DNA of 64,000 nucleotides from contig NC_047019.1 in assembly GCF_902652985.1 (NCBI RefSeq), forward strand, positions 14,382,097-14,446,096, in the 5' to 3' direction. The translations under genes and the position numbers were made by a program. Below are positions 155 to 37,645 of the stretch, in pieces. Numbering within the stretch: position 1 is the stretch's first letter; each line of letters starts with the position of its first letter. The notes below the pieces were generated by a model. That model was not told the origin of the DNA, did not search any database, and worked only from the letters and a program-made list of their open reading frames with translations. The DNA comes from Pecten maximus (lineage: Eukaryota).

Positions 155-3100
155 ATTTCCGACAACTCCGGCGGCGTCCGAGGAAGGTGTTGCCGTCCTG
201 GCTGTAGGTTACAGTATAGGTAAGTGTGTAGTAAGAGGAAGAACGGTAACTCTGTGTTGCCACGCTGTACACTGTCGATACGTTACCAAGATCCACCTAA
301 ACATACAAGTAATGCTATCCATTATACAAGAGTTTATATAGTTAAACGATCAGCATGGATGGTTTAACTAATATCTTAAAAGTTTTCCAATCTTGTTTCC
401 CTTAAAATCGCATTACCTCATAACATTTGAAATAACGTCACCATTTGTAAAGTCGCTTTTGACTGGCTACAAGAGCTGCGTAGTAATTCCTCCGAGGAAA
501 GAGATTTGTTACATGTTCTCATGACGTTATATCATATTTTCCTCCGAAACGTAAATACCTTATAAAAAAGTCTTATATTTTTCCCCAAACATTCTTCAAA
601 GAGGGTGAAAATGCACGTTAATCAACATATATTTTCCAATTGCTTGATAATGTTGTGATGATGCTATTTCTAAATTTTCCACAATTTATATGTTTGAATG
701 ACCGCGTGTACCTATTATATAAGACGAAGATACTCAGGAGCGTCAAACTCAAGACCTATGATCCCTAGGGTGTCGACTTGCCTCAGTGATAACAGCCTTT
801 TTTCCTTAGGTGAGTTGGTGAGTTCGAATCCCAGTCAGAGTGCAAACCGAACATTATCTCTCTTCATCATTGTGTTTTTCTCCCTTCATCATTTGTGTTT
901 CTATTCTATGTATCTAATTATTGAACACTATGGCAATTGTATGTTAAAAAAGAGTGTTGCAGATTCGACATGTACTAAAGACACACACTGTTAGCACCTC
1001 TCAGAACAAAATGATAGCTAGAACCGAAATGAATTAAACCACAACATACACATATATCGTTGTGTCTAGGACTAGTTAGTGATGATAAGGGGCCTAAAGT
1101 GTTGATCATATATAGGAGGCGAGCAGTAGATCGAATAAAATGCTTAAATCTGGATAAGTAGGTTCACAATATCCCTTATTCAAGGTTAATGTAAGTAGCA
1201 AATCCCGCGGTATTTATGTCAACAGCAGAACCCATGGTTAACCATAATGCTTACGAACAATGGTTACATCTGTTCTATTGCAACGGAGTATATAATGATT
1301 TATATGCCTGTGAACTATCAATATATTTGCTCTACAGATGAATCCTAGATAAATGTATTAGATTTCGCATTGAAGGTAACATACATGATTTTTATTAATA
1401 TATATTTGATACGCCCATACTACATGTGATACAGTATACAACATACCTGTAAGTATGACCCAGATCCATTCCCTATCCATCCCGTCTTTGAGTTCAGGCG
1501 ACCATCGTGGGCGTTGTAGGTGCTATAGGTCAAGTGAGCTGACAACTGGGCGTCGGGGATGTTTTTAACGTTCTGATCCACTCCGAATGCGCGCAGAGAA
1601 CAAACTAACCAAGTAGATATCATTATTAACACATTAAACTGAATATAAGGTTAATATCAGTAAAAGGCGTACAGGGAATAATCCGCAAATAAATGAAGTA
1701 ATATCATTATTTATACAAGGTCCGTCAAAAAACGGGAGATAACTCACTTGATTCACATCTGTCCCCGCCATATCCCTTGGGACAACTACAGGTGAATTTA
1801 TTCAGGTCATCCGTGCATGTTCCACCATGCTCACATGGGTTGTTTTTACACTGGTCCTGTTCTGAAAGAACATTTTATACTGTTTTTATTCTGGGTAAAA
1901 TTTTTGAAGTATATGAATCTTAATCAATAATAAATAACAAGATATAAAGTTAAATAATTAAACAGTTATATATAAATAACTATAGATTGTAATGATGGCA
2001 GAACTTTCAACTTCTGAATTAATAAGGTTTAATTCTATGCATCCTGTCTCTGGGATATTAGAATCAATTAAACGAGAAGATCAAACAATTCTATGGAACA
2101 GACCCCGGATGTTGATGCTGAAGGATCCGTCAGCATATTTTCCGTGAATATCGGTGGCGCGAATTTCAAAGTGGTAGGTAGCATCCACGTCGGGAGCAGT
2201 TCCGGATATCACCCCGGTTGCATTATTGAGTGTAGTGCCGGGAGGGAGGTGACCGGATACTACTTCGTACACAATACTTTGACCGTCAGGATCCTGTACG
2301 ATTATAAAGGTTACATATTAAAAATCAGAAGATGTTATAAATAACGGTCACGTAACAATTGTCTTTCATAGCAGTTGTTTTGCTCTTGGTTTGAAATGTC
2401 ACGTGACATAATGCAAGGAGTTCATACTGCATCGATTTACGTGATATTTCTACAGGATATAGAAGTAGATAATGAAGGGTTACTTACCCTCGCTTCTGCG
2501 GATACCGAGAGTGATTTCCCTGCGTTGAATGTACCCAGTGACCCATGAACAGACTGCTTTGTCCAAATAGGGGGTAGGCTCTTCACTTTCTGAAACACGA
2601 ACATCCTTAATCAAACGTGGGAAGGTATTTAGTCTATTTAATTATCATTAGGCAAAAGTTGCTTCGCCATCATAGGAATCGGAGTTAATGCAATCTCTAA
2701 AATAAAATATGGTATTCTTTCATGGGAATGTCAATGAAACTTCATCTGAAAGTTTAGTTGTTTTAAATCATACCTCGGTCGTTATTTGACGTCATCTTTA
2801 ATATCAAGCTTGAAATCTCTGAAAAGAAATTCTAGACTTTAAGTTTAAAAACAAAACAATCCATTTTCCTTCATGGCAATCCCTCCCTGATTACACAACA
2901 AATCATGCATATAATACTATAATAGAATTGGTAGTCATATCAGTATGCTTTATTGACCAACCTCGATGATTTTTCGCAGGTCCACACCGGCTATGTAGAC
3001 GGTTCCACCAGCCCCAGGCTTCAGGATAACATCTCCACTCTGGCCAGCCTGAAGAATAGTATTGTTTTCATTGGGAACTACTCTAAATAAACAAGTAACA

Positions 3101-3767
3101 GTATGCAAAACGCAAACATATGCGTTTGTGAGGCACAAGTCAATCATGCTTTCTGTGTTGTTGCCATTTCAGTAAATTATTGTTCGTGAAAAATAGATCG
3201 CAGTTGTCTGATGTTAAAGTGGTAAAACTGACATTAACATGTGTGCATCTGAAGAATACAATTTGGTATAGGTGCGAAAAATAGCCCCGTACATATTAAC
3301 TCGTACATAACCTGCATATTCACATCGATACCCATAGTGCCCCAAACTCCGAAAATATTGGTCATGAATAAGTGTGAATTACAAATTATTATATACTGTC
3401 AAATACATATGTATTTTGAAATTGCTTACTTGCAGGATTTAGAAATAAACTGACGTTAAACAGAAATACATTAAATCATGATGATGCTGTAGTTAAAACG
3501 GACCATATACAAACAGGAATTGAACAAAGAAAAAAAGGATAAAGACTTTAGCCTACCTCAAATATCAGGTCCCCGTTTGGTTCTGAAGATATGTTTACAT
3601 TTGGATAATCTATCTGGAAAAAACTGTAAAAAAAATTATATGAAAGTCGGTATAGAATACAAATATCAGGGACAAATTAGTATTTTCGATATTTAAAGTA
3701 TATTATTCCCTTACCTGGATGTAACGAGTGTTGGCAATATTACGAAAATCGCGTACATTGCCGCCAT
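155..3767 (-). CDS. Paralog A: secreted CADG(He_PIG)-EGF-discoidin domain protein, multi-exon, 3' terminal exon lies upstream of window start
   Basis: Exons on the minus strand with GT-AG boundaries: 3715-3767 (ATG plus signal peptide MAAMYAIFVILPTLVTS), 3557-3623 (..QIDYPNVNISSEPNGDLIFE), 2962-3048 (AGQSGDVILKPGAGGTVYIAGVDLRKIIE), 2488-2589 (KVKSLPPIWTKQSVHGSLGTF..), 2104-2293 (He_PIG/CADG: DPDGQSIVYEVVSGHLPPGTTLNNATGVISGTAPDVDATYHFEIRATDIHGKYADGSF), 1748-1861 (EGF: QDQCKNNPCEHGGTCTDDLNKFTCSCPKGYGGDRC), 1447-1604 (discoidin part 1: CSLRAFGVDQNVKNIPDAQLSAHLTYSTYNAHDGRLNSKTGWIGNGSGSYLQ), 155-296 (discoidin part 2: VDLGNVSTVYSVATQSYRSSSYYTLTYTVTYSQDGNTF..). Exon sizes and phases match paralogs B, C and D. 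Exon 155-296 is 2 nt shorter than its counterpart in paralog C, which is a possible frameshift. Confidence 0.7.
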
Positions 3768-6002
3768 GATGGATTTCTATCTTTTTAGTTACCGGAAACT
3801 GTTCCTTTAGACCGCTATCCCGGCTCAGATTGTGTCGGATACGTTAATCAACCCATTTCAGTATCACCATGCCAACATAAATGGGTGACACAGGTTGGGG
3901 CCAAGGTTGGATCCGTACTGTTATTTGTTGTTCTAAAACCAGGCTAATCCTCGGGCGTAGTTTACGTCTACGCAATGTTTCCGAATCTACGTAACCTAAC
4001 AACGAGGCATGGAGCAATGACAAAGCTAAAAGACACGAGTACCTTCCACAGAACTTCCTTGTTCTATATTTTTCGTTCTAATTGATCTCTCTTGTCCTAA
4101 ATCTCAGACAGTAACCCAGCAACAGGCGATAGGTAAGAATAGTGTGACTAGGCGGATTGCGAATGTCAAATTCTCCCTAGAACCTTACAATGTCGTGTGT
4201 GTCACTTGTATTCGTTGTGTTCATAATAGTGTTACGTTGGTATTCATCCCGATTAATGCCACCATTGCACAGTAATTAATATGATAAAATGCACAGTTTA
4301 AATGTGATTTCCTTATCTCTGTTTACGTAAAGCTATCTATTGTCTACTGTGAATTAATTTGCTAGTCTTAACTATTATTAATGACGCATATTAACTCGAC
4401 GTCTACTGTGCTTTAAATGATCCTTTGCCCATTGGGTCTGCTTTAATAGGTTGTGATATTTGTATGTTTTATCTTTTGTTTCTATTAGTTACGTTTAAAC
4501 GTAGGTAACGTGTGAAAAAGCCTTTACAGAGTTAGGCCTTTTTTTATTTTTTTATTTTTAAGAAACCCCAAAAAACAAAGAAAAAAACAATAGTGAATAT
4601 ATCGTAAAACCAAACACTAATTATAACTCAAAAACATTAACTGATGGAAAAATATGAACGAAGAATAGAAAAATTTAGAAAGTTGTCCCTGATGATTATG
4701 TTGTAAGTAAAGGTCAAGGAAACCGGCTGATGATAAAGAAAATGTAATGTCTTTGGTTTCAAGTCCTAAAGAGCATATCCTCAGCTAGGTCAATAAAGTG
4801 TTTGCTATCAAAAACAACACATCGACAGCATACACAAAAGTGAAACTGAATGACTTTGCAAGGTCTACGCTACCTTTAGCCATAGCTATTCTTGCCAAAC
4901 GTTAAGATGATGTAAATATGACGCTTGTTTTGTCTAAAGAATACCTGATAACTGCTTGCATCTAATTTAGATGTAATTCGTGAGAAGTTTCTATATTTAC
5001 TCAATCATAGTTGAATATCATTTCGCCATCGGTTCTTGCTCCCGCCCTTGATTTGTATAAGAAACTTTGCCATAATTTAATATCAGTTTACCATCGGTCC
5101 TTTCTGCCGCCCATGAAATACGAAACTTACGAAACTTCCCTACTTCGATCTCAAGCGATCCTAATTAGGTCATACTGATACAAAACTATTAGGCTGTTCA
5201 CTGGATGTCCTCGTGGATCATATCATGACCGAGTTAACGGCACCATCATGCATTTGTTAAAAAAAAAGAATTTCCACATAATTTACTTTGCAGATGTCTT
5301 TAATACGAATTGAGCAAGGTCTATTCATTAATATTTGAATTCATTATGTTTATCTCAAATTTTACCAGTAATGTTGACATATTAAAGTAGGAAAAGTAGC
5401 TATATATTTATTTCTATACATGAACTTTTATAGGATTGAAATTTTCTTTGCTGTTTTGTGTTATTTTTTTAGCCTTTTTCCCTTTCACTTTTATGCCGCA
5501 ACAATGTATAGTCGTGGAAATACCGTGCGTTTCGGCTAGTATAGTTGATTATGCTTCCACATATTCCACATATTTCTACTTAATCTCTCATTATGGCTAA
5601 AACACGTAGACAGAGAAAACCGCCCGTTCCAGGAACATCCTTACTTCACCACCTTTGTTCAGTGGAATTTTAATTGCCATCCTGTTATTCCTTTAACAGT
5701 TTTTATTTTGTAATTGTGTGTAACAGTCTGGGTTTATTTTGTCTATTTTGTTTCGTTCTGAAAACCACCTTAGTAAAAAAAATGTAAAATGTTTCAAGGA
5801 ACTGATGAGTCGCTATACCGCTAAACGCAGTAGACACATACAGGATATTTTATCCAGGTAAATTCGGCGGTACTGGATTTATTGACATTCCAGGTTAAAC
5901 ACTCACACTTCTCCTGTCCCGGCTGATACTCTGCCTACACAAACATGCCAGTGTAATAGTAATTACTGACATAAACTTGCTTCGAAGAACAAAAAAGCAG
6001 AA

Positions 6003-9000
6003 ATGGCTTTGATTATTGGAATTACATCCATATCTTTATGTTTAATTACATCAGCCATTGCCGGTTCTCCTGGCGAGTAAGTATTTGTTTATCTATTTTC
6101 ACTTACATTACACTCATTGATGAGCATAATTTAAATGTTGTCTCGGCGGAAGTGACGTCACAGTCTGTTTTGCTTTTATGTACAGGTACATCACATTTAA
6201 AACACAATTCTAATTTTGTGAAATTCAAAATAAAGAACACATTTAAACTGGTGACAAATTGTTGACAACACAGAAATTCGTTTAATTAGATAGTTTATAT
6301 ATATCAAAGATTTCCTTATATGTAGTTGCAATATAATAATAAAGATTCAACTTGAATATATATTTTTATTATGGAGTTATAACACACAAAAACGGAGTGA
6401 ACTCACATCATAAAGCGCTTTGCGGGTTACTTAGAGTACATGTACTTTGCTTTTGGGTTATAGCTCCGTATAACACAAACAATATTTTCACGTTAATTCT
6501 TAGATAATATATTTCTTTATTGTATTGTATGTACTATCAATTTTCTTATTTTTGATTTACTTAACCTAATTCAGGTAAAAATTTACTTTAATTGTTGGAC
6601 TCGTTTCTTTAGAAATGGTTCTACAGCTGTATCAGTCAACCAAAGGCGACGTTCACAACGTTTACGTTATTGGCTGATATCATAAGTTCTCAAGCCAATG
6701 AGCATGCTTGTTAGATATATCATAGGATAATGAATTAATTTAAGGGTCCATATTATTTTTATTGTTACTCCGTCTGTAAGTCTCTTTCACCTTTTCAATA
6801 TAATATTTCTATTATACTACAACGTGTTTGATAACACGTGACTGCTTATCCCAAACCTCACAAATATGAGATTACAGATTCATTATGACGTGGTGACGTC
6901 ACAAAGAGATATAATTTTTTCTCATATTGACTAAAAATCTGTTGCAGAAAATAATTGAACAATGAATATATGCAAAAACATTCATTACAGAAAAACAAAA
7001 TTAAAACTCAATAAAAAAATCTCTTATGAAAACTGCTGTATACATATATAGTTCATCCTTTTTGAATAAACGTGTTACTTTTATTTAGCGTTCTCCAGCT
7101 GGACTATCCAAATGTGAAAATAGCTGCCCAGAAGAATGGAACATTTTTGGGACAGGTATGATCAGATTTGAAGTAGTGAGAGTATCGACTATATGTAATA
7201 TGTACAGTTGAGAAGAGTGGAAGCATTTAGGTATCCACCCTTCATTTTCCGTTCTGCTTTCGTTTAGGGCTGCTATTAAATCTATATAAAAATCGTTAAG
7301 AGACGAGTTTCTCATATATTTATGCATAAAAACAATTATCAATATTAAAGCATTCATCATCAGTTATTATGACATATGTTGTTTTTCATGCTTAGGTTAA
7401 CACTATATTATGCACTATACAGTTTTCATCAAAATCAATACGAACAATGAAATATAAAGACATTTCGGTGTTTTAATACAAAGGTAAACAATGACAAAGC
7501 AATGCAAATAAATAATTATTGAGATTTATTTTGTACAATTATTTATGTACAGTACAGTATACCTATATTTATTAGTCGGGACAGAACGGCGACATCTACA
7601 TCCAGCCAAAACGAAACGGCTCAGGAACAGTAATGTTTGATGGCTATGATCTCCAGGAAATTATTGACGTACGTGTATTAGTTCATCAAAACTCATCCCA
7701 CCCAAATTATCTTATCAACTCGGTCATATCCCTTTAGTATAAAGATATTCATAACCACAGCTCTATTTTGTGATGTTCTGTAACCATTGATTTGACGTCA
7801 TATATACCGTACTAATTGCGAATACGTAACACATTTAAATAGCTTCACTATAAAGTGTATAAAATATTGATACTGAATATAGACATATATGTCAACCTAC
7901 GTCTACATACCATCTACTACCAACTTGAAACCAAAAAAGGACGTTAAACAAAATAAACAAAACCAAAAGTAGTCGTAGTAAAATAGAACTTCATGCGTAT
8001 GTAACAATTAGTAAAAAATTATGTGTGAGGTTTTGGTGACTTTACGGCGGCATCGGAAGACCAGAAAACGCATGCTAGAATGTCATTCAAATCGGCTGTT
8101 AAATTCACTTGAATCAAATGAGTACAAACTTATATAAATTGATTCGAAAACAGTAAAAGTTTACTAGGTGTTTATAGATGAAACTATCCATTGCTTGTTA
8201 TAGATCATCAACAATATGCCTCCAATATGGCGTCTACATGGACATGTCGGCTACTCGGGGACGTTTGAGGGTGGCTCGGGCATAGCGATTCCTCTGGAAG
8301 TGTTGGTAATCATTGATTTTCACTTCAACAGAAACCATTACCCTATCGTGAAAATTAAAAAGGGAATCTTAATAACTCAGTTTATCTTTCCTTCATGTAG
8401 GCTCTCTTCTTTTGGGTTAGGTTTGGGGTTTGGGTTCAGTTGTGATAAATTCTTCGAACAATGGAGAGAGCGTTTTATTGTGGATTTCTTAAAACATTGG
8501 CACTGCTTTAAACTTTTTATAATTTTACAGGACCCCGAAAGTCAGGACGTTCGCTTTGAACTTGTTGCTGGAGATTTTCCTACCGGTCTAAGTATAGTGA
8601 AAAATCCCTGGAGAATTCAAGGTATTGTCCCGGATGAAGACGCCATTTTCACGTTCACCATCCGGGCACTTGACACAAGTGATAAGTACGCCGATGCAGT
8701 TTTCAAGATAGAAACACTAGGTATTTAGACGTGATCATAACTGTTTTATTTACATAATGGCGTATTTATAAAAAAAAAACCTACAAGGAGGAAAAATGCA
8801 CGCCAATATTTGTACATATATGAGAATTATGATGCCTATTACTTTGAGATATAGATTAATATATTTGTTGTTCAACTATTTCTTAACATGTGTTCTTAAT
8901 ATGTTGATGATGTTGATACAGAGGTAGACCAGTGTGTCCGTGAAATGTGCCACAACAATGGACAATGTAATAATACCAACACTCTTCGTGGGTTTACCTG

Positions 9001-10934
9001 TACATGCCCGACGGGGTACGGGGGACCAACTTGTGATGTCAGTAAGTGTATCGCTTTCTTCTCTCTGGTCTATCAAACAAAAATATTTCTACCACAATAC
9101 GGTGTGTTATTTAACTCTCAGACCATCAGTTAATCATTACAGCTGTTGATTAACAATCTGTTTATACCACACGTGGTATAAACTCTGTACGCATTTTGAT
9201 TGGCTAACAGGGTGAACTTTGACCCAAGCTGCAATTGTTATTGACGTCATCAATAATCTAATGACGTCACATCACCGGGTCCCGGACGTCACCGGTACAC
9301 TTTATTTGCATACGCGAAATTATACTTGGCCACGTTTCCCTTTGATTCAAGCCGATATTATTGTGGTAGAAACAGGTCACACGACTCGAAAATTGTTGGA
9401 TATGGAATTTATTTCACACGGGTAAGTTATTTTTTAAAAGTTGCAAAAAACACTCGCTAAAGCTCGTGTCTTTTGTAACTTTTAAAAAATAACTTACCCG
9501 TGTGAAATAAATTCCATATCCAACAATCACTCGTTGCGTAACGTCTATATATACATAACTCAATTTCAATTGCACTTTGTTATGTGATTTCCCTGATATT
9601 AATTTCTGTCAACATAAAACAAAATATAAATAATTATACACATGACTATTTGGCTATATTTTATTTGTCAAGGCTGTAACAGGACTGCTCTTGGTGTAGC
9701 GAACGCATCAGTGATCCCAGACGCACAGCTGAGCGCCTACCTCTCTCGGTATTTATCAAAGGCATTAGACGGTCGGTTGTCAAGAACCGGAAACCATTGG
9801 TGTGGTGAAAACGCCAACTCATGGTTACAAGTGGATCTGGGTAAATTAGTTTCACCATCTTATTTGCCCTTAAATGCATAGCTCCATAGCTTGAGCATGT
9901 CATGCAGGGTTTGTATAAACTTAATATTGGCTATAAACGTACGTCGTCTGCTTGTAATTATGCCCACTCAAATTATTGACCAAAACGAAATTAAACACAT
10001 TCACACCTTCACACCTTCATGGATTGAGGCACCCACAATACTTGCAGAGCGAGAAACGCTTAAATTATATAATCGCTGAATATGTGCGTTTACATGTGAT
10101 TGTATTGCAAACTTCAGCACATGTATTATTTCTGTATGAGAATAGTTACATAGCTGTTTGTATACTTGTGCTGCATTGTTATACCATATATACGTGTATG
10201 AGTACTGCAGCCTTACACAAGGAATACTTATATCATCACTAGGTAGTCAAGCACAGATATTCCTGATAGAAACAGCTGGGGCAAACTCAACGTTCTATGT
10301 GAAGACGTATACACTATCATACAGTACTGACGGAACCACCTTCGATATCGTAAACGATCTCAATAGTACCAGTGTACATGTAAGTATTGGAATATCGTAA
10401 TAATATCACTTATAACTCAACATCTCCTGATATCAATATTCACTAACAAGTTACATATTCATCAGCAACCATAGCAATATCATACGAGAAAACAAAGTAT
10501 CTACTAAAAACAACATTTTAAGTACAAAAGAAAAACAAAGCTTTCATCCCGTTTAATAATGATATTTTCACCCCCTCTCCCCCGTAATCTACACTAACTG
10601 GCATAAAATTGTGTATGGTACAGGACGACAGCAAAATAAGTTGAATGGATGCATTATCATCTTAATTACCTTGATGAAATCGGAATAACCAAATAGAACA
10701 TATCCCCCAATGCTGCAAACGTATTAAATAATATTATTATCCATTGATTAGCATAAGTTATGTTAAAACCATGTACGGTTTTATTGATTACAGACGTTTC
10801 AGGGTTCAATTAGTGCAGAGTACCAGTCCCTGCCTGAACCTATAGAAGCACGGTTTGTCCGGATCCACCCGAAAACCTACAAGAGCGGGTACTACCCCTG
10901 CTTTCAAGTTGAAATGTATGGATGTTGTCTTTGA
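6003..10934 (+). CDS. Paralog B: secreted CADG(He_PIG)-EGF-discoidin domain protein, apparently complete 9-exon gene
   Basis: Exons: 6003-6076 (MALIIGITSISLCLITSAIAGSPG, signal peptide, donor gtaagt), 7089-7155 (VLQLDYPNVKIAAQKNGTFLGQ), 7576-7668 (SGQNGDIYIQPKRNGSGTVMFDGYDLQEIID), 8204-8305 (IINNMPPIWRLHGHVGYSGTFEGGSGIAIPLEVL), 8531-8720 (He_PIG: DPESQDVRFELVAGDFPTGLSIVKNPWRIQGIVPDEDAIFTFTIRALDTSDKYADAVFKIETL), 8922-9041 (EGF: VDQCVREMCHNNGQCNNTNTLRGFTCTCPTGYGGPTCDV), 9673-9840 (discoidin: CNRTALGVANASVIPDAQLSAYLS..DGRLSRTGNHWCGENANSWLQVDLG), 10243-10379 (SQAQIFLIETAGANSTFYVKTYTLSYSTDGTTFDIVNDLNSTSVH), 10794-10934 (TFQGSISAEYQSLPEPIEARFVRIHPKTYKSGYYPCFQVEMYGCCL, stop). All junctions are GT-AG and phase-consistent. 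Confidence 0.82.
9393..9526. repeat. Perfect long inverted repeat (hairpin), 2 x about 50 bp with about 34-bp loop, in intron of paralog B
   Basis: TTGTTGGATATGGAATTTATTTCACACGGGTAAGTTATTTTTTAAAAGTT ... AACTTTTAAAAAATAACTTACCCGTGTGAAATAAATTCCATATCCAACAA. Confidence 0.8.
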
Positions 10935-12556
10935 TGGATTCCTTCCTCTTTCAAGTCGGATACGTAACTACTGGATCTAGCTTTCGCAACAGTCTGATAA
11001 TATAACAAATGATTTCACGATGTCAAAATTGCTTCCTTTTCTTTTGTCCAGCTTGTCTATTGTAAGCATCTCATTGAAATTCGATTGACTATTGTTTGAA
11101 TTACATGATGCATCTTTTATTACAAAAATAAATCTTTCTCAACATCAAAAAATCTCTGAATCTTGTGTGATGTACATTATATGCCTAGAAATGACAAGAT
11201 GACGTTGATATTAATTTCTCTCTTACATTAGGGTGTTATTCCACCACGGCTTTGCCATTACATCAGAAGTGAAAAATAGTTTCTGTACGAAACACACTCT
11301 GTTTCAGTTTTGATTTCCGTTAAAAGCTATATGAACTATAACTTAATCGTTAACCAAATATGCCCCATTTCTGCTTTGGTGGAAATAAGTAACCTTAAAA
11401 TCTAACTGAGGTCGGTTCAACGAAAAATGAAATTGCTTATTAAACCTGAACAATATAATATCGATGCATAAATAAAGTAAGTGTAACACTCAAAACTGGT
11501 TCAACAAAGATTCGCCAAAATATAGATTTTATGGAGCATTACAAAGGTAAGATGAGGAGAATAAAATCCGGTGTCTCGGAAAAGTAATGACAATCTGCTT
11601 AATTGATTACCCTAGTATGTTAGCGATCAAGGACATTTCATCCAGTTTATGTCACGCTGTCAAAATAAAGGCCATGGTGGTGACCAACAGACGTATCAAC
11701 GAGCATAGAACACGTTGAAGTACATATCAAACAAGAGAATAAATTACATTGATGTCCGCCTAACTAGCTGCGCCTCTTACCAGTGTTGTAAATGTTAAAT
11801 TTGATGGTAGACGTGTTTGGTTCTTGTTGACATACTTAGCAGTTCCATTGTCACTATACACTAGCTCTCACTTTGTAACTTGACCCATATTTGACCTAGA
11901 TTAGCGTTCCATGTGTCGATGATGAAGTGGAAGACGTTTTCCAGTCAAATCACCTGGTCTGTTCCTTGTAAGACCTGTGTGCAAATTCATGTTTGATGCT
12001 CGTACTTACACTCGTTTTATGTTTTTAATTTGATATTACGGGTTCCTTTTGTTTTTACTGAGGGAGTTTTTAGTTGTATTTTATATACAGTGATGTAGTG
12101 GCGTGACATAAAACAGTTATTTAATTAGATTAATTGATATCAACTAATATAGAGTATATGGGAAATGAGATTGCTCTTTTAAGAATGTGTACGACTAAAA
12201 GATATATGGGCCGATGAAATATTCAGGATACCGTTTTCCATTTCCTTGATAAATGTACAATTTGTTTTGCTGTAGAGTTTATTTATATTGTGGTTTCTAT
12301 ACATAATGAAGTTACAATAAATAGTCAGTAGGATCAATTTCTCCGTCAAGGAGTCTTACGGGAAATATACCAATCTATTTGAATTATTCAGAATTAAGAG
12401 TTGGGCGTTGCCCATTCTGTCTGTAGATGTATATTGAACGTTCAATAAATACGACGAGAAAAACATTTAAGTCTACGACTTTTTATTCTGATTTCATAAT
12501 TAAATTAAAACTAATGTTGCATGCATTGATCAACACTGATATCCGTTATTTACGAA

Positions 12557-15500
12557 TTAATCTCGCATCCGTAAATCTTCCACGCGCATGCCCGGGTGGC
12601 TGCTATATGTGACTGGCTTGAATCTGATAAAGCGTGCATGAAGGGGAGGAGTTAGCACGTGCTTGGTAACGGTGTTGACACTTGTGCTTCCGCTATACAC
12701 CTGTAATAAGAAAAATGCATCATGTAAAACATTTAGTAATTTTTAAAAGTCATCAATTCCGATCGCCTTTAGATGTCTACTATCTTCAATAAGACCGCAC
12801 AGATAGTTTTTAAATTCACTCAAACGCGGGTGAGTTGAATGGCTTATATTGGTTTTTGTATTAAACAGGTTTTATGGTTATAAGATTATGTTTTGTATTC
12901 TTCTTACCTACGGTAATATCAATATTTAATGCCGTAATCGACCTACCATGTTTGCTGTTCCGTTCTTTGTGTTTACGAAGGCATTCCCGTCAGAACTGTA
13001 CTGAAGCTGGTATTCTGATGTATAATACGTTGAGGACGTGTACCCCTGTGTAGCAATTGCGTGAACATCCATGATGTCCCCGAGATCAACCTGAATAATG
13101 CACTCAGTGTCTTTATCTTATATAACCGCAGCAAATCTTTTGGATCTTAAATTCAGACAGCAAGTCTTGGATGCTCACAGTTAGGGGTGACTTTTATCAT
13201 TATATACAACCATCCAAATTCTCACATGTTTTCACTTATTTGAATACCGGAAATCAATGAAAACATTTGAATTTTCACTGAACAACATTATGAGACAAGG
13301 TTATGGATAGCGACATCTTCTTGTTGCGACGAAGAACAGTTCAAATAATTTTATATTGGTACAATATTAAAATATCTATACTTGAACAAATTAATATCTC
13401 AATAATATAAATATAATACCTGCAACCAAGAGGCTGTATTCTGTCCGATCCAGCCTTGAGGAGCATTCAGACGTCCGTCAGAGGCCGGGATGGTCCCCAT
13501 AGGAGTAGTGAGCAGACATCTGGGCATCAGATATCGTCTTCGTCCTCTGATCTACCCCAAATGCATGAGACTCGCAGTCTAACGGAGAATCAGATAGGTT
13601 ATATTATTGTTTTTTTCATGTTCTCTTAGTCAACAATACTCGTCTGGTTCTCGCTGTTTACATAGGTATATGCATTGTCTGATTTACAATAAATAACTGT
13701 TCTCACTTCTCGAAACGAAACACGCCTGACTCTAGAACTGACATATAAAACTTTAAGTCTTCATTTACCTCTCCAATTCAAATAAAAAACAAGTATCATA
13801 TCCAAAAATTGACTAATTCTAGTATTTGTTCCGAAGTCGTGAGTATAGCAAATTTACAGATAAGTTTCCCGTAATATTCTTACTGGTAGCACATGTCGTT
13901 CCACCGTACGGTTGGCGACAAGTACAGACAAAACTGTCGATATCGTCTACGCACGTCCCTCCGTGACTGCACGGGTTACTCAGGCACTGGTTCTTCTCTG
14001 AATGAAAACACATTGTAAACAATAGCATGTCCTTTATCAGCAGATATTGTTTTGTCATTATGTTGGTAACTCGTCAACTGAAAAGGCGTATTGGAGGAAT
14101 TCGGTCGATAGTATGGGTATGTTTCTTATAAGAACGTAATCATATTTCATTGAAATGTCACCTCTTCGTTGAATCATGAATACAAGTCATTTTCCATTTC
14201 GGATGAAATGATTTCTAAATGGTTATTATGATAAGGTATGGCTTATTTAAGTACATTCTGTATAAATATTAACTTTCATTCATAGAGTGACGACTACTAG
14301 CTGCCATATTCAGTGTAATATGTTGAATATGTTTTAATATAAACACTATTCATGCCAAATAAACATATATTCAAGCTATAAGGTCATTAGAGAATATCTT
14401 CCTCCTACACATGACAGTCAATTACTCGTACTAGAATAAGAATTTAAACTTCTGTATAAAAATGATGACAACTGTAGACGTTTTTATTTGGTGGACTCAA
14501 AATTTAGCGTATTACCAAACTAAAAAAAACAAATGCAATAACGAATTGGCGTTACGATAAGATACCGCTAAAAAGTGTACGTTTACAGAAAGCACACCTC
14601 TTGTGTCGATCGAGAAGATTTGGTCGGCATATTTCCCGTGCTTGTCTGTTACCCGGATACCGAACTGATATGTAGCATCCACATCTGGTGCTGTGCCGGA
14701 TATCTGCCCGGTGGCTTTGTTTAGCACGACACCAGGCGGCAATGCACCAGAAACCTTCTCATACTTCAAGGCTCCTCCTTCGGGGTCCTAAATAAACCGT
14801 TTAATGCTCTTTGTGAATGTAATAAAAAGTTTACTTGAGTTTTCATATACGAAAAGAAACACACAAAAAGAATAAAAAACAACAAACAAAAAACACGTAC
14901 ATGTATTTAAAACCAGACTAACAAAAAAACTAAAACTTTTGAATTAATATTACAGTTCATAATTATATATTCTGTAGTTTGTTTATTGCGATTATTTATT
15001 TATTGTTTCCTATTGTTTCGTTATTTTAATTCAACTCTTTACACTTGACTTATTTTCAAATGCAAAATACTTCTTGGTTATTAACGACATACCACAGCTT
15101 CAAGATTCAGTGCAATCGAAGCTCCTCCGAGGAACGTGCCCAGTGAACCGTGAACGGATTTCAATTCCCAGACGGGAGGCATGCTGTTGACAATCTGAAA
15201 GAAAGCAGTCTACCTGTTATACATGTAGTCATTTTGTAGTTCCATGATGTTATGTTCCTCTGAGTCTCGCTATGTGTTGTTTGGTATGATTTGAAGTAAA
15301 GATCGGTATTGACAATGGTTATTGTTTTTAAGTAAGTTTAAGCCGTAACATTTTACCATTCGATCATTCAGTCCATTGGCAATGTATATCATACTTACAA
15401 AAATACCTACATCCTATTTTAAAATGTGTACAATTATCGTTCATTATCGGTCAGATATGTATATTACCTCAAAGAGCTTCAGTATATCCGTTTTACCAAT

Positions 15501-16735
15501 GTAGACAGTGCCGTTACCGGTAGGTTTCATAATGATATTTCCGCCCTGTGGACCTGCCTACATGATTATAAACAAAAAGGAATAAATTGTCCAGCTGAAT
15601 ATCAATTTGTTACAAAACATATTAAACATAGTCATGCATGTGTGCTAGAGTACTGCTTCACTTACTGTTTATAACGTTATTATTAATGCCTTCCTTTAAT
15701 ATGCTATGATTAAAACTTTTAAAAACAGTTATCGGTAAACAAAGACGTCACTTCCGGTATATATGTAAAAGGATGTAGACTTTCGGTTGAAAGAACGTAA
15801 TTAAATATTCAAGTAAGAAAGACATTGTCAGTTAATAAGCAAAATCTCGCGAATCATTAAAATAATAATGGAAGATTTTGTTTTAAAAAACAGTATGTAA
15901 TTGAAGAGAAAATTGATGCTCGTTTACTTGTACATATTGTTTATATTGACAACTATAGTAATGGTGAGGTGTACACCTACCTCCACAGTTAGGTTACCAC
16001 CGGTCTCAGCCGTAACCAATACATTTGGGTACTGTATCTCGAAAAAACTTCAAAACAAGAGTGAGTATGCAAATATATAAACATAAAACAACCAAACAAA
16101 ACAGTACAAAAACAACAACAAAAAACAAAATTGCGAAATACCAAATGCGTATACCTAGTATATTCATTCTATATATACCTACTAGGGATTTATAGATAGT
16201 TCTGTATTTCTAACTTCGGGAAATCCATGAAAGTCCAAATAAAAACACCTGTTTTCGCTCCATCCATCAATAATAAGTCATAACTAGTTTAATTTGTAAT
16301 GTAAACAGAAACTAACATCTTTTCAAAAGTTGTCATTTATGTCAATATAAAAAAAAATCAAATAGAAAATAAAAAGTCCATTTTTCAGTCATACATGAGT
16401 ATCGCCATTTTATATTAATATGGGACAATGGTAAACCTGACAATTGAGAGCAGAAATACTGGTAAAAGTATGTCCAACTATACCAGTTATAGGTGGCATG
16501 GAATGCTATATCAATATACAAGAGCGCATATATAGTCAACGATAATATATTTTCTTCAGCAGAATTTAATTAATTTCGCTTAAATATACCTTTCATGGAT
16601 ACCCAATGATATTTTTGTTGAACAATTCATTACACAGATATCCTGATAAATAAACAAAACAAAAATAATGAATTACCTTGCTAACGAGTAAGGCAGGAAG
16701 AACAGGAGAAGGTACGTTGTTTTGATGGCCGCCAT
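12557..16735 (-). CDS. Paralog C: secreted CADG(He_PIG)-EGF-discoidin domain protein; 9 exons; an apparent 1-bp insertion/frameshift in exon 13420-13578 makes it a possible pseudogene
   Basis: Minus-strand exons: 16677-16735 (MAAIKTTYLLLFFLPYSLA, signal peptide), 15981-16047 (SFFEIQYPNVLVTAETGGNLTVE), 15468-15557 (AGPQGGNIIMKPTGNGTVYIGKTDILKLFE), 15093-15194 (IVNSMPPVWELKSVHGSLGTFLGGASIALNLEAV), 14598-14787 (He_PIG: DPEGGALKYEKVSGALPPGVVLNKATGQISGTAPDVDATYQFGIRVTDKHGKYADQIFSIDTR), 13884-13997 (EGF: KNQCLSNPCSHGGTCVDDIDSFVCTCRQPYGGTTCA), 13420-13578 (discoidin part 1: DCESHAFGVDQRTKTISDAQMSAHYSYG then frame shifts to TIPASDGRLNAPQGWIGQNTASWLQ), 12947-13090 (VDLGDIMDVHAIATQGYTSSTYYTSEYQLQYSSDGNAFVNTKNGTANM), 12557-12700 (VYSGSTSVNTVTKHVLTPPLHARFIRFKPVTYSSHPGMRVEDLRMRD, stop). 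Confidence 0.75.
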
Positions 16736-18506
16736 TTTGTTTAGAGATGATGAGTTGCGCTGGAAGCCTAGAATGAGGTTCCCGGCTAACACCTGCTGAA
16801 ATGTTTCGTTGACACAGACATTAGGTTATGCCACGTGACTTTTGTGATTACCGGGTACAATGAGAAATATCTCGTCAATACCTTAGTAGATACCGTACGA
16901 CAAAACATTTTATTGCCTTCAAATATAGTTTTGTAATAAAATAACTTATAATCTTTTAAGCATGTATTTGCAACAACCACAAAAAAGGAAAAAAACTTTT
17001 AAAAAGCAAATAAGGATTTTCAAACTTTTTCAATATATTATTTCCTCAAACAGTATTTCTTTGTTAAAACCGGCAGCGCAACTTACAGCAGGTTTGTATC
17101 AGATATCTATTTTTACTTCATGCATAATTTTTACACAATATCAATCAATGTATAATTGTTTTGTTTCTTTATTTTGTGTAGGATTCAGATGAAGCTACCA
17201 TGGCTGTTTTGTAGTCGAATTCATTTTGTTTTTTATCAACTCAACTTTTCCACCCAAACAATGACCTTGTATGTATATATATATATATGTAACACGTGCA
17301 GCCGGGGTTACTTTTCACAGAGATACTAGTATTTCTACATGTGTTCATGTCTAGATTAATGCTTCTAATTTCGCGCAGTCAGATTCCACAGATGTGTGTT
17401 TTTGCGTATCTGGAGAAATCCCGACGGTAAACAACACTGATACTGACTCGTAGACGTGACAGATTATAATTAAACCCTTTAATGGGTGAATATCCCCGTT
17501 TCCAGACACTATAAGAAATTGGGTCAGGTCATTCGGAATATGTCAAAGGATGACTTGTCAATTAACGTGCAACCACTGCAACTGGAACATGCGTGATGTC
17601 ATTCTTCTAGATAAGATAAAATTGTCATTTTAACACAGTCTTGGGCTTATATGGCATTTCATCTCCCTCCCAATATATAAATAGGAAAAATATAATGTAT
17701 ATATAATATTTTTGAAAAATTTATTTAATTTCAATAAATTTTACTAATTAGAAAAACCTCATGTCCTTTAGTGGTTCTCCCCATCCAATACAACAATGTC
17801 ATAGGATGTTTTTGAAAGTACAGATGTTTTCAGATATGGAACATGAAATTTGAAATTTGAAGCAAGGAAACTTTTTAAAGAAAATAACATTTAGTATTAT
17901 ACATTTATGTTGTTTTGTTTCTACGATATATATAATTACGGGTCAAAATCATTGGACAATTTACAAATGTATTGCTTTGTCTGAAAACTTTTATCGAATG
18001 ACTAAATGTTCTGTATCGACACTAATAATTCACCTCGTCAGGCCAATTAGTTAAAATACTACTGGAACAGAGATAACAACAAATGACAAAAGATAATAAC
18101 AATAGCTGCCTGGATGGTTATTCATTTGTCAATTAAACAGAATCGGAACCATTAAATAAAATAATACAAACGAAAGAACCGTCTGTCAATGACATCAGCT
18201 TTCCATTACCATCTAAAATAGAACTACAAAAGCAGTTTTTATAAAAAACGAAGCTTAACGATATAGCTTCACAGAAGTGAGCTACTAGTATTTCTTTTCA
18301 TTGATTTTTTTCAATTTTTGAGATATTTGATTAAAAAAGATGGAAAAACAAGCATAATATATCAGACATATTTATCTACAATCAGGCTGTAATAGAAGAA
18401 ATAGGAAGTAGTTGTGTATGGGAGGCCAAACGAGAGCTCCCTAGTGATTGTGGTATCTCAGTCCATCCTCGGGGGATCACTAAACTAGATGCGAGTGTAA
18501 AACAAG

Positions 18507-20883
18507 ATGGCGAACGTGTACAACCTGTTTTCGGCTTTGATGCTGGCGATCCTTCTGATGCCACAGACTGTTTCGGCCGCTACTGAAGAGTATGTAAGTT
18601 TTTACAGTAAAATGGCCAGAATATACGCAAAATATGTCAGTTCATGTAATTATGTGAACGCGAAGTGAGGTTATTAATCTTAAGGAAATAATTCAAAGAT
18701 GCCACATCTTTGACAAAAAAATAATTATGAGATTCATGCAGTGCCAAAAGCTATATAAGCTGTATAATATATTCATACCGTCCTCCAAAATTTCAATTTT
18801 TTTCCTTATTTTGTATTATTTCATTTATTGCATCCTCAAAATATGGTAGATTGTGTTCCGCTTCTATATTTGGTATATGCATCATCGCTTTCGTTCGTCT
18901 AAGCGATCACTTTTTTATTCCTTCATTTCTTATGTTCTTTTCCTTTTATTCATTTCTATGCCATTGGTGATATTTTACGCATTTTTGTCACGGGCAGTGT
19001 GCAGGCTGTCAAACGCTGAATATTTGTTAATTGTTATGTATTTGGTACAGCTGTCACAATGATAAAGATATGGGAAACATGGTGATGCAAAATGGATATT
19101 GATCAGCTGCAATGCATCATCAAAAGCAGTTTAAGCTTTTTGTTGTTGTTTTTATTCGTAAAATGATTTTCATTTACTTCAATCCAAAATGATAACATAA
19201 ACATAAGCATATGTCTAAAAAGTGATATCATTTTACAGTCCTTTACAAGTGGATTATCCAAGTGTCATTGTCCACGCTAAAGACAATGGAAACTTCACTA
19301 TGATGGTAAGCAAGGTTCTAACATACAGTGTGTTTTAAAACTCAGCTCTATCTGTAAAATGAATTCCCATGCTATTCATGCATCTGTTTCTGATTTGAAT
19401 ATACTTTTGTAATGCATTATTATACACTAGTATTTTCAATGGATCAGTTCTAACTTCTCACTACATTACAATGGTAAGCAATAAAAGAAAATTTAATCCA
19501 TTCCATTTGTGTTTTGAATAACATATTTATGTATCGTCATGCAGGAATTTTTCATTCAACATTTTGTTATTCTTAAACATTTATAAAGTCATAGTATCCC
19601 TATTTTATTCGTATTCATGCTTATTCCATCCCGCTTGTTTTTGTCTGTTTAAGTCTGGAATCAATGGCGACATAAAACTGTTGCCCGGCGTCAACAACTC
19701 CGGAAAGGTGTACTTTGAGGGAGAGGATTTACTTTATCTCATCGAAGTAAGACCTTACAAAAATGTGATATATTATATTATGTAGCAATAATTTGAATTA
19801 CATTTCCATGGTAATTAGGGTGAATAGTTCATTTTTTGTAATGGACTCTATGCTCGCTCTCATTCTCTCTTTCTCCCATTCACCAATATCTATCCATTTT
19901 CTATGCAGGTCATACTGAGCCAGCCCCCTGTATGGTCAGAATATTCACCGTTCGGACACCTCGGAGATTTCCATGGAGGCGAGAGGGTGTACGTCCAATT
20001 GGAAGCACTGGTACATGTATTTCCTAACTCATGATATTTCATTATTTTATTAATATTTACTTACGTCCATGGTCAATGTATGTCATAATTCAATCTTCCC
20101 AAATACGAATCACAAATTATGAACCATTATCTCAAGGTTTTTTATTTGGGAGGCTGTGGTATGTTTGTGTTAAGTCTCCTTGTGATAGGCCGGATCTTTT
20201 GCCGATTTAGAGTGCTACCTCACTGAAGCATACTGCCGAAGACACCCAGCATCACACCCCACCCGGTCACATTATACTGACAACGGGCGAACCAGTCGTC
20301 CCACTCCTAATTTGCTAAGAGCTAAGCAGGAGCAGCAACTACCATTTTTAAAGACTCTGGTATGTCTCGGCCAGGGGACAGAACCCAAAGCCTTCCTCAC
20401 AGGGGCGAACGCTCAACTAAAGGCCAAAAGTGAGGGAGTGTCAAGGGAGACATTAGGAAGAAGAAAGTTGTTAAGAAAGAAGAGAAAAGATAAGATCCCA
20501 AGTTGAGTCGCCTCTTACGATCATGCAATGGGGGCAGCAGGTACAATTCTTACGCCCTACCTGCAGGGCCACCTCCCAAATACGTATCACAAATTATGAA
20601 CCATTTTCTCAAGGTTGGTAAGAGTATACGAAGATGGAGTTTGATGTAGACAACACGCAGTCAACAGTTTACATGTAATGCTTCATATTGTTATTTCATC
20701 GCTACAAACGACAAGTAAATGTTCATTAATATGTCATGATAACAAGAATACCAAGAAATCGACAAGTCTATTCGTCCATGATGCATTCACTTCCACCTAC
20801 AAAATAATCAACGATATGTGAGTCACATGTAACCATAGAAACCCTTTATTCAGTTCCTAGGTACTCGATAAAAATGACAAGAG

Positions 20884-20918
<35 letters not shown>

Positions 20919-23900
20919 TTCCCCCTAGCATTGTAAACACATAAGTGATATCTGCTTGAAATGTAGGCGGAACAACCTGTCGATTTGATGGTGATCCTGT
21001 ACACTTTACACCTTGATTTTTACCTTTCCGCGGAATACTCGCTTTTTTATATATGTATCTCTTGATTTATTTGATATGTATGTTAATTGTCCTTATATCA
21101 TCAATGTGTTTAGGATCCAGAAGGAGGTCATGTGACGTATTCTGTGGTAGCTGGTGATCTTCCTCCGGGGATAACACTTGATCCGTCTTTAGGTGAAGTA
21201 AAAGGTTTGGCTCCAGATGCTGACACGACATACACCTTCACCGTGCGCGCTACTGATTCACATGGCAAATACTCCGATAACGTACTGCAGATGAAGGTTA
21301 GAGGTGAGCAAAAACAGAGGTTTCCGACATGGAAACGAAACCGTAGTTCCATTACAAAACGAGATGAAAATACGAACGAAAACATATATATATGCATTGA
21401 CACCCTTGAAAAAGCGGAGGGAGAATAGGACCTTGCGTTTCGGATGGGGGGGGGGGGGAGTCTCTCGCTCCATCGACGATATTCGACATGGAAATAAAGG
21501 TCAAATCCGGGTTTTAAGTATATAACATACAATATGACTTCCCAATACAACAAGAATTCAGTGCAGTTGGTTTAATGAATTCAGATCTATAATTTTATCA
21601 TTGATTTTTTTTTAATTTCTAGGTGGCCATTTCTCTGTATCTTACCAATTACTGTATTTTAATATCTAGGTGACTATTTGCAGCTACCAGTATCGTCAAC
21701 AAAAGGTTGACGATACTTTAAACCTACTAATGGGGAGGAAAAATTCACCAACTCAAAAGGTCTTCCTATTCTATTGGACATGGAAGGCCACGACACGCAC
21801 CATATTTGAAACATAATATCGGTTATCATTACATAACAAAGCCTTTCCAGAAAGTTATCATTATCAACTGTTTCCCTTACTAAAGAGAGTATATTTCAAA
21901 CTACTGAATATGGCAGAATAAACTATCAAAATATAATAAGTTAGAGACTATTGCAAATTTCTTTCATTTCAATGTTCATTTCAATACAATACATGCAATC
22001 AATGTAGCGTTCGTAGTTGATACACGGCGCTGTTTCACAACAAAACATTTTCCTTCTTATCAAGGCGGACAAGTCATGTTATTAATTAATCTGATGAAAA
22101 TTCGTATTTTTATAAGTTTTTTTCGAATTGAATCTGTGTTAAAAGCCTTCATTATTACACTGGAATATAATTTGATTTTTCCTGAAATCCTTCTTTTGTT
22201 TGCACACTTTTGCTATTGGCATCACTCTGGTGAGTCCTCGAAGGACGAAACAGTTGTATGATGTCCTTACATCACTGGCGAGTCATATAGAAGGACGAAA
22301 CAGTTGTATGATATCCCTTACATCACTATCGAGTCCTAGAAGGACGAAACAATTGCATGGTGTCCTTAACATCACTGGCGAGTCATAGAAGGGCTTAGCA
22401 GATGTATAATGTCCCTAACGTCACTGGCGAGTCCTAGAAGGATGAAACAGCTGTTTGATGTCCACAAATATCACTAGCAAGTCATAGAAGGGCGAAACAG
22501 ATGTATTCTATAGTTTCAAAATCATTTTGTATTTATCAAATCCATGTCTTGGACAATCCTCTGTACAGTTCTTACTTTTTCCAAACTTCTCGATTGACGT
22601 GGTTTTAAATCGGTAAACATATCTACAAAGATCAACATACATCTTTTTATATAGAGTAATTTTAACTGGTTACGTTTGTAATTTTAGGTAGTAATTCGTG
22701 TACCAGTTCCACATGTCGACACGAAGGAATATGTCAGGACCACGTGGGCGATTTCTATTGTACCTGTATTCACCCGTACGGAGGCAAAACGTGCCAACAA
22801 GGTAGGTGTTTTGCTTTTTCTGTATTTACATATTTAACTGAATTTACTGACTAGAGCTCAGCAATTTGGATGAGACATCGAGAGTTCTGTGCTACACAAG
22901 AATACAAAGAAGGACATACCGCAGCCTCCCAATTAGATACATACACTCACTACGTTTATATGGCCATAGCTGTTGACATGACGTTTAACAATGCATGGAC
23001 AAACCAAAGCAATTATTGAGAAAATCAGTTAAAACTTTAAGTTTCAATTCTTGAACGCTAACAATATAAGGCTAATGTATCGATATCTATGTAATATTAG
23101 CTTTGTCTGACTCCAGACATGGCGTAAAGAATAGATGTTTAATTATGTCCTAGATTGCCGAAGCCATGGTCTAGGAGTGGACAGCCGACACAAAGTTGTG
23201 CCAGACGCCCACATGTCGGCATACAAAGTATACAGTAGCTACTTAGCCTACAATGGCCGTCTGTATGGGTCTGGATGGTATGGAATAGATAGTCAATCAT
23301 GGCTTCAGGTCGATTTGGGTAAGTATTGTATAGGTGGTACTGTATAAGAAGCATTGCATGTGTCCACGTTAGACTGGCCACCAGACCCTAAGTAACTATG
23401 TTAAGGATTACCAAGCTTTTGTAATACTAGATTATCTGCCCCTAGTTGGAAACTTAGAATCAGACATATCCTAGGGATCAAAATCATAAAGGTCAATTTT
23501 ATTTATAATTTTAATATTCTAGAGACAGTGGGCCAGTCTAGTGTCCACGTGTGTGCGAAGTAAGCTTAACATCTTCATAGTTTTACGTCCAGTAACCAGT
23601 TATCCGTACCACTATAGGAAATAGCATTGCTGTCCACACAGGGAATAATTTAGTGGTGAAGTCCGTAAAAACGTTACTGTTGAACACATCCGTCATAAAT
23701 CAAAACGTCTTCGATAGGTAAATGTGTTAAATGTTGGTCAAGATTGTCTGTCTATCATTACTGATATTTTGAGCAGCATTATAAACTGTTTTCTCTAATA
23801 GGAAACGTGACACAAATCCATGGTGTACAGATGCAGGGCTGCACCAGCTATTATTACACATCAAGGTTTAATCTGCAATTCAGCGTAGATGGTAATTCTT

Positions 23901-33335: not shown

Positions 33336-34187
33336 CTGAAATTAAAAAGATTTTCATATGATGTTCATATAAATTGTTTTTGTACTTGCCAATGTATAAC
33401 ATGTAAATACTAAGTATATGGCCATGAAAAGTCAGTACATCCATCAGGGTTGATGTGTATAGTGCATATTAAAGACCACGGAGCCTTGACACAAACTCCC
33501 AATGAAACTGAGGCTGCGATAGCTCAGTCTGTTAGAGCGCCGGCCTTGACTTAACATCAGATGAAGATCTAAGTTGTTTAGTTTGACTCTCCTTACAGTT
33601 TTGTGTTTGTCAGGAAGCTTTGTGGCTGTTCTTCCTCTCGATGGCATGCTACAAAGAGTGACTATTGTATGTTGTTTAGTGAGGTAGTCACAAACTACTA
33701 CAAGCAGAACCTATTTCAAAATGACCCTGGCTGTTCATGGGGTGATAAACCCAGAATTACATATGGAATTTATATCCCCTGATTTCCCGACGTATTGTAA
33801 GTAAACATTTTTGAGGTTAGGAATAAATGTGTCACACTTTAGCTTGACAGAATCACAAACTCTGTTGAGCCATAATACATTGCTTAAAACTTGAAGAAAA
33901 AAGTAAAGCCTTATACAGGTTAGAAGTTTTATTGAACATGTGTTACAAGATAAAGTAAGACTTCCCTTCTCATCTGCCATTACCAAACCCTATCACGAAT
34001 TTGACTGAGCTCTTAATACATCAGACTCTGTTCTCCTAAGTGGGGGTTGGGTATTTGTGCCAAGTTCCTGAGTTTTAATTTGATATGGGATGTACATAAG
34101 TTGAAAAATTGGATAGGATGTTACATGTGGTGTATATTTATAAAATACAAGTTTTCCTCATAATAAAAAGGTGTTTTTAATGCATTC

Positions 34188-36751: not shown

Positions 36752-37645
36752 CTGAATGGAAAGAAATATAATGTACTTATCACAGTTTAATTCACTATGC
36801 ATGTACTGTATAAAGTACAATAAATGTACATGTATTGTAATAATGGAAACAATTCTTTTTAAAAATAGGTAAACTAATGTTAACCTTGATTAGTGCAGCA
36901 TAAAACTTCCAACTTAAAAATACTTTAATTTTACTTGAACCTTAGACAAGACTTGAACTATTAACATACAAATGTACATGTACAATGTAATTTGAACAGT
37001 TAAGCAAAATTTTAAAGGATAAACAACAGAATACCCTTCGTGGAAATAGTAAACAGTGTAAACAATAATAGTGACCAATACCCTTTTGACAATTTTATAC
37101 ACTTTTATATTGACAAAAAAATTACATCACATATTAACCCTTGAAATCATTAACTTTTCTCTGGACCATCTGTTTATATATAGACTCCAACTAAAACACT
37201 TCAATTTACTGTACTGGAATCAATGTGTTACTGACCTTATGAAAGTAAATAAAATTCATTATCAATATATTGGTTTGTATCATTCCAAATCTTAATATTT
37301 ATACTTTTGTGACAAATTGATTAATGTCTATGTAAATTGTACAATCAGGAATCTTAATCAAGTTTTGAAAGACAGGAGATCTCGACCCGTGTTTCCCGGT
37401 ACGACGAATCACCGAAACGGATCAATTAAAAACGAAGAAAGGTATAATATAGATCTACATGTTTATTGTGAATAGTAAGTGACGAGACATGTATAACGTT
37501 ATATCAGAGATTATATACTAACTAGAATATAGACCTCTGGTTACATATACGCACGGTATGTTCAACCGAATCGTGTTTCCTGCTTTGACCCATTAACAGA
37601 CATGTATGAATTTGACCATTACTGGACAGTCCGTTACTTTCAATT

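Follow-up and report, generated by a model that had tools for sequence, protein, structure and literature searches.

The question raised by this stretch of DNA is whether a conserved gene has just been broken in the king scallop, or whether it is broken only in the assembled sequence. The stretch, here called the window, comprises 64,000 nucleotides of Pecten maximus (assembly GCF_902652985.1, contig NC_047019.1, positions 14,382,097 to 14,446,096 of the forward strand), has GT/AG introns and about 36% GC, and is eukaryotic; its source in the king scallop is borne out by the translation of one of its genes, paralog A, which is identical to XP_033740047.1, ‘lactadherin-like [Pecten maximus]’ (P0014). 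There are four tandem paralogs in the window (in the order A, D, C, B), which belong to a family of secreted proteins with a He_PIG, an EGF and a discoidin domain. For one of them, gene C (12550-16735, minus strand), a preliminary description reported a 1-bp insertion in the first discoidin exon and proposed either a recent pseudogene or a homopolymer error. The frame break is really present in the sequence, but it probably does not correspond to a biological feature: together with a second insertion in gene C and a third in paralog A, it is judged, with moderate confidence, to be a residual single-base error of the P. maximus assembly.

Three other scallops, Argopecten irradians, Ylistrum balloti and Mizuhopecten yessoensis (loci L001, L002 and L004, respectively), have an intact gene C at the syntenic position, and the order B-C-D-A is also preserved in them. 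C-type relatives are found in oysters and mussels with 62-65% identity, whereas paralogs A and C share only about 55%; since C is closer to its oyster and mussel orthologues than to its neighbour, the paralogs are old. In P. maximus, gene C has nine exons, all of orthologue length save exons 7 and 9, with an ATG, canonical AG/GT boundaries and a stop codon. Exon 1 (16677-16735, minus strand, as are all the others; 59 nt) has the orthologue length, contains the ATG and the signal peptide MAAIKTTYLLLFFLPYSLA, and ends at a GT donor; exon 2 (15981-16047, 67 nt) also has the orthologue length, between AG and GT boundaries, and is followed by exon 3 (15468-15557, 90 nt) and exon 4 (15093-15194, 102 nt). 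Exon 5 (14598-14787, 190 nt) encodes the He_PIG (putative Ig) domain PF05345, residues 98-166, and exon 6 (13884-13997, 114 nt) the EGF domain with its six cysteines. Exon 7 (13420-13578) is the first discoidin exon; it is followed by exon 8 (12947-13090, 144 nt), which is intact, and by the last discoidin exon, exon 9 (12550-12700).

Exon 7, bounded by ag and gt (13578-13420), is 159 nt long. Read in its entry frame it gives DCESHAFGVDQRTKTISDAQMSAHYSYGDHPGL and then a TGA (13480-13478, minus strand), and in the +1 frame it carries on as ...PASDGRLNAPQGWIGQNTASWLQ, which is homologous to the corresponding exons of paralogs A (1602-1447), B (23153-23308) and D (9675-9830). Both the premature stop and the paralog-A-like continuation had been recognized in the preliminary description, and both can be read directly from the sequence. 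The orthologous exon is 158 nt long in Argopecten, Ylistrum and Mizuhopecten; thus, there is one base too many in P. maximus, and the break of the frame reported earlier holds against three scallop genera. Its position is another matter. The orthologous proteins read ...SAHYSYGDHPASDGRL..., with YGDHPASDGRL, and the codons for D-H-P-A are GAC CAT CCT GCT, GAC CAT CCA GCC and GAT CAC CCG GCC, where P. maximus has GACCATCCCGGCC. Because the orthologues keep the entry frame through D-H-P, the extra base (a C or a G) lies within the coding-strand CCCGG at 13485-13489 (minus strand), opposite CCN GCY of the orthologues. The extra base had previously been assigned to the GGGG run at 13495-13498 (minus strand), about 8-10 nt away; this run is part of TAT GGG GAC (Y-G-D), which is conserved and in frame, and the residues ‘TIP’ of the earlier reading are wrong-frame sequence.

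All other exons of gene C had been taken to be intact, but exon 9 carries a second +1 insertion, being 151 nt long compared with 150 nt in Argopecten and Ylistrum. Its entry frame gives ...SSHPGMRVE and then DLRMRD before a TAA (12559-12557), while the conserved IYGCEINS lies in the +1 frame, ahead of the conserved-frame stop (TAA, 12552-12550). The extra base falls within 12576-12579 (minus strand), where P. maximus has GAAGATTTAC and Mizuhopecten GAAGTTTAC, and where the orthologues have GTN GAG/GAA GTT TAC GGA TGC. On the simplest reading of these letters, an A would have been inserted at 12576, outside any homopolymer run. This lesion by itself would remove the terminal Cys353, the disulfide partner of Cys209. 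As assembled, gene C encodes a product of 240 aa without a discoidin domain (no match to PF00754). Removal of one base at each lesion gives an open reading frame (ORF) of 1074 nt and a protein of 357 aa, in which Pfam finds He_PIG (98-166), EGF (174-202) and F5/8 type C (PF00754, 231-350; 73.6 bits, gathering cutoff 28.2), and in which both members of the cysteine pair that bounds the discoidin domain, Cys209 and Cys353, are present.

The third insertion is in paralog A (155-3767, minus strand), which is cut by the start of the window, so that its exon 9 lies outside. Exon 8 (155-296, minus strand) is 142 nt long (3n+1) compared with 141 nt in Argopecten, with one extra base at 180-183 (minus strand), where P. 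maximus has TTCCTCGG and Argopecten TTCC-GGG. In the +1 frame the exon encodes SDAAGVVGN directly followed by GTAAGT, the orthologue having RDAAVSGGN. The annotated protein, XP_033740047.1, reads ...DGNTFLGRRRSCRN FSASASYD..., the orthologues reading ...DGNTFRDAAVSGGNTFSGSSSYD...: in place of their xDAAxxxGN it has eight residues that are out of frame (LGRRRSCR). We infer that it can be obtained from the window only if exon 8 ends at CGG (159), 4 nt before the canonical donor. Independent orthologues align with exon 8 of P. maximus only up to DGNTF. XP_033740047.1 bears no low-quality label in RefSeq; it was derived from this same assembly and is therefore no independent control for paralog A. 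Outside the shifted stretch, paralog A has 12 unique amino acid changes compared with 11-21 in the other species, i.e., no excess.

Frame breaks of this kind are absent from the neighbouring genes: none was found in paralog D (about 7.1-10.9 kb, plus strand, between A and C) by comparison with three syntenic orthologues, none in exons 2-9 of paralog B (about 19.2-25.3 kb, plus strand), and none in a Ras/Roc-like gene (28643-38192, minus strand; 11 exons, 490 aa) by comparison with an Argopecten-type orthologue.

If gene C had been released from selection, its coding sequence (CDS) should bear the marks. For measurement of dN/dS, the orthologous CDSs were spliced from the Argopecten, Ylistrum and Mizuhopecten loci. 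Pairwise dN/dS (Nei-Gojobori) is 0.037-0.071 for every pair, and three-taxon parsimony places 37 synonymous and 5 nonsynonymous changes on the P. maximus branch (omega about 0.04), compared with a neutral count ratio N/S of about 3.3. Among the four taxa, P. maximus has the fewest unique amino acid changes (7, compared with 10 in Argopecten, 20 in Ylistrum and 8 in Mizuhopecten), and all seven (S100A, S112A, Q197R, S220T, V266I, V272I, N315S) are conservative. Gene C has, provided that the assembly is correct, the frame-disrupting lesions relative to functional orthologues that are expected of a pseudogene, and it does not have the relaxed constraint, as judged by omega, the conservative changes and the canonical splice sites. 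A Poisson bound on these counts limits the neutral share of the terminal branch to at most about 4-6%, or about 7-9 substitutions. Since constraint on the P. maximus branch has not been relaxed, any real inactivation of gene C must be extremely recent, in agreement with the view taken in the preliminary description.

The way in which the P. maximus genome was assembled offers a source for such lesions. The assembly was made with wtdbg2 from 66x PacBio Sequel continuous long reads (CLR), followed by Arrow, and was polished with freebayes from 114x 10X Illumina data by ‘homozygous non-reference edits’; after Hi-C scaffolding there were one more round of Arrow and two more rounds of freebayes (PMC7191990). 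The sequenced individual had a read-based heterozygosity of 1.71%, and the assembly consists of 3,983 scaffolds (PMC7191990). Short frameshifting indels are the commonest error of CLR pipelines, in which quality ahead of short-read polishing is Q30-35; with the same tool chain only 82-99.7% of the primary sequence was polished, and unpolished frameshifted loci can arise where the reads go instead to the copy on the other haplotype or to a false duplication (PMC8081667). The filter of the Vertebrate Genomes Project edits alt/alt genotypes too (PMC8081667).

Taken together, there are three frame-breaking insertions in about 2.0 kb of CDS, all of them +1, in two ancient paralogs 13 kb apart. Assembly error is favoured because the lesions are all +1 and fall in two strongly constrained ancient genes with no other decay, and because the documented CLR mechanism yields local clusters of such errors. 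The two options put forward in the preliminary description were thus the right ones, apart from the specific attribution to a GGGG homopolymer and to a single lesion, and the balance between them has moved towards assembly error owing to the additional lesions in exon 9 and in paralog A, the absence of relaxed constraint and the CLR origin of the assembly. For error rates of 3e-4 to 1e-3 per nt, the probability of three errors in A and C and none in about 3.5 kb elsewhere (B, D and the Ras-like gene) is about 5e-3 to 7e-3, and this three-versus-none pattern is far likelier at such rates than at Q45-50. The proposed sequence of events is that short-read polishing was not effective over about 1-17 kb of the window, for instance because the polishing reads were drawn to an alternate haplotig or to a falsely duplicated copy. 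Gene C would then be intact in the animal, with nine exons encoding a secreted protein of 357 aa under strong purifying selection, and the reads would be expected to contradict the assembly at the three lesion sites.

A close described parallel is the set of indel errors reported for CLR assemblies, of which TLK1 in a hummingbird is an example (PMC8081667). There, too, single-base indels break conserved ORFs and are locally clustered, and Arrow, longranger, freebayes and bcftools consensus were applied to a heterozygous diploid. The present case, seen in the assembled sequence, differs in that wtdbg2 and not FALCON-Unzip was the assembler used for P. maximus, and in that one lesion lies off a homopolymer and a clean gene lies between the affected ones.

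Three observations weigh against residual error. Three rounds of freebayes with about 114x Illumina coverage should mend simple consensus errors where exons are unique. No frame break occurs in the roughly 3.5 kb of CDS of paralogs D and B and the Ras/Roc-like gene, although D is situated between A and C, so that under-polishing would have to be patchy on a scale of kilobases. Finally, the simplest account of lesion 2 is an insertion outside a homopolymer, and such insertions are less typical among the consensus errors of CLR assemblies. Another idea, that each insertion represents the two alleles of a heterozygous single-nucleotide polymorphism written in tandem (C/G, G/A and C/T), fits all three sites; however, any insertion beside a different base would fit, and thus the idea has no discriminating power.

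The same observations lend themselves to the main alternative, which we regard as possible though not the better bet: that the frameshifts in gene C, and perhaps that in paralog A, are genuine and very young, constituting either a just-fixed unitary pseudogene or segregating null alleles. The insertions are, after all, present in the sequence, one of them outside a homopolymer and all of them after heavy Illumina polishing; as only non-reference homozygous edits were applied, true heterozygous alleles would have survived it. Clustering of lesions in two genes beside 3.5 kb of clean neighbouring CDS is what would be expected of dead genes, and the permitted neutral phase of about 7-9 substitutions could include a second indel. 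Within this alternative, segregating nulls picked up by a collapsed assembly are more plausible than a fixed loss, given a broadcast spawner with 1.7% heterozygosity. The transcript would meet a premature stop in exon 7 of the nine, would encode no discoidin domain and would probably undergo nonsense-mediated decay.

Sequence collections bear on the choice as follows. The P. maximus gene C protein, whether truncated or corrected, was not found in a collection of 15 billion sequences, which speaks for genuine lesions; nor did this collection contain a transcript-derived P. maximus protein for C or for A. An exact-sequence search of the read-derived Logan assemblies with ORFs across lesions 1 and 2 gave no match. 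Among the Logan matches there were no P. maximus transcripts of paralog A, the best match having 64% identity, and the cluster of XP_033740047.1 has a single member.

Against genuine lesions stand their number and uniformity. Three independent insertions would be needed in two ancient genes with omega of about 0.05, unaccompanied by any nonsense, splice-site, start-codon or radical amino acid change, and a strongly deleterious null is unlikely to last until a second frameshift arises. Spontaneous small indels in animals are usually deletion-biased, whereas all three lesions here are insertions. Young unitary pseudogenes and segregating nulls elsewhere resemble gene C in having frame lesions in a conserved, single-copy, syntenic orthologue; gene C is unlike them in showing no relaxed constraint and no second type of lesion, and in having a parallel lesion in a neighbour annotated as functional. 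A particular form of this alternative, in which P. maximus is losing the linked paralogs A and C together, or carries nulls of both at appreciable frequency, is considered unlikely: simultaneous fresh loss is improbable a priori because gene C is conserved in scallops and has relatives in oysters and mussels. If it were true, it would suggest that the two proteins act in a shared pathway, loss of one relaxing selection on the other, too recently for other decay to have built up.

Biological restoration of the frame, whether through alternative splicing within exon 7, a programmed +1 ribosomal frameshift at CUC-UGA-C or slippage at the RNA level, is very improbable. If the ribosome moved to the +1 frame at CTC TGA C (13483-13477), the product would read ...YGDHPGL-DGRL..., of the same length as the orthologue ...DHPAS-DGRL..., and CUC-UGA-C resembles the prfB site CUU-UGA-C. 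The orthologues, in contrast, encode the protein in a single frame with no need of a shift, and the lesions in exon 9 and paralog A have no stop codon or slippery motif nearby. Splicing was the rescue that the preliminary description had named as capable of overturning its proposal, and when the options in exon 7 were enumerated none restored the protein: frame-restoring GT..AG segments of 7-52 nt are too short and leave wrong-frame sequence in the protein, the remaining ones (115 or 136 nt) delete most of the exon, and of the in-frame alternative acceptors one keeps a wrong-frame stretch while the conserved core is lost with the other two. An old, long-dead pseudogene, for which two frame breaks in gene C might speak, can practically be discarded in view of the omega of about 0.04, the fewest unique changes of the four taxa, and the intact splice sites, ATG and stop.

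If the insertions are artefacts, as is favoured here, the P. maximus protein set lacks gene C, and eight residues of XP_033740047.1 are out of frame; counts of gene families, tables of orthologues and scans for selection based on this reference would be slightly off at this locus, and calls of a ‘young pseudogene’ from assemblies of the CLR era need confirmation at the level of reads. If the lesions are real, they represent an ordinary, very young loss-of-function allele, and a modest case in which a bivalve with high genetic load has very recently lost a conserved gene for a secreted protein of the adhesion or lectin type.

The corrected protein invites comparison with vertebrate EDIL3 (Del-1) and MFGE8 (lactadherin), which are likewise secreted and combine EGF-like domains with F5/8 type C domains bounded by a cysteine pair. 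In EDIL3 there are three EGF domains and two discoidin domains, and He_PIG is absent. The scallop protein differs in having one EGF domain, one discoidin domain, an Ig-like domain of the He_PIG/dystroglycan type and a conserved N-terminal stretch of about 95 aa; the EDIL3/MFGE8 layout, with several EGF domains ahead of a tandem pair of discoidin domains, is not what Pfam finds in it. The automatic names ‘EDIL3-like’ and ‘lactadherin-like’ thus reflect shared domains and not demonstrated orthology.

In the family as a whole, the signal peptide is followed by about 95 conserved N-terminal residues that match nothing in Pfam, and then by He_PIG, a single EGF domain and a single discoidin domain. 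In gene C, some 90 residues of the N-terminal region (SFFEIQYPNV...NSMPPVWE...HGSLGTF; residues 20-106, exons 1-4, 15093-16735) are strongly conserved among scallops and among paralogs. Residues 20-106 matched no Pfam family, and this region may be an undescribed domain.

The position of the intron that follows the first discoidin exon differs between paralogs: A (1447) and C (13420) are spliced right after ...WLQ, whereas in B (23308-23321) and D (9830-9843) VDLG is included ahead of the donor. The conserved boundary phases that the preliminary description had invoked for exon 7 consequently hold within the A/C type, and not for B and D, whose donor follows VDLG.

Two further observations concern the orthologous loci. 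In Mizuhopecten yessoensis, a separate locus (L003, genes at 1661-9669 and 17569-23782) has paralog A with a D-like gene on each side; there is no C at this locus, C being at L004. Therefore, the Mizuhopecten cluster has at least one more member, or a different arrangement, than the part of the cluster present in the P. maximus window. In the C orthologue of Argopecten irradians, the acceptor of exon 9 (L001, 13906-13909) is TTTCAA/G rather than ...CAG/G, and so the annotated Argopecten protein depends on a non-canonical AA acceptor; splicing at canonical sites, with the donor 4 nt downstream and the acceptor 1 nt downstream, would add one Val in frame.

Beyond the paralog cluster, the window contains, besides the Ras/Roc-like gene, the debris of transposons. 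At about 42.6-62.3 kb, on both strands, a repeat occurs in six or more copies with the ORF ...SPCDRPELLPIYSATSLKHTAEDTKQDTPPGHIILTTGEPVV..., often followed by ...GTEPKxFLTAANxQLKAKSEAxSRETLGRRKL... (for example at 42608-42817, 42824-43045, 44644-44976, 51532-51756, 55077-55376 and 60999-61223); it is probably an abundant transposable element or a family resembling short interspersed nuclear elements. ORF fragments of transposon type on the minus strand (59005-60290, 54782-55021, 53792-54778 and 48641-49534) include reverse-transcriptase-like fragments and a DDE-transposase-like fragment adjoining a long tandem-repeat ORF rich in Pro, Val and Ala (PVPAVAPVPxVTPVPALA...), and a separate minus-strand ORF in the stretch 48641-60290 consists of tandem repeats of the VATHVDPAVPTTSVVAT type.

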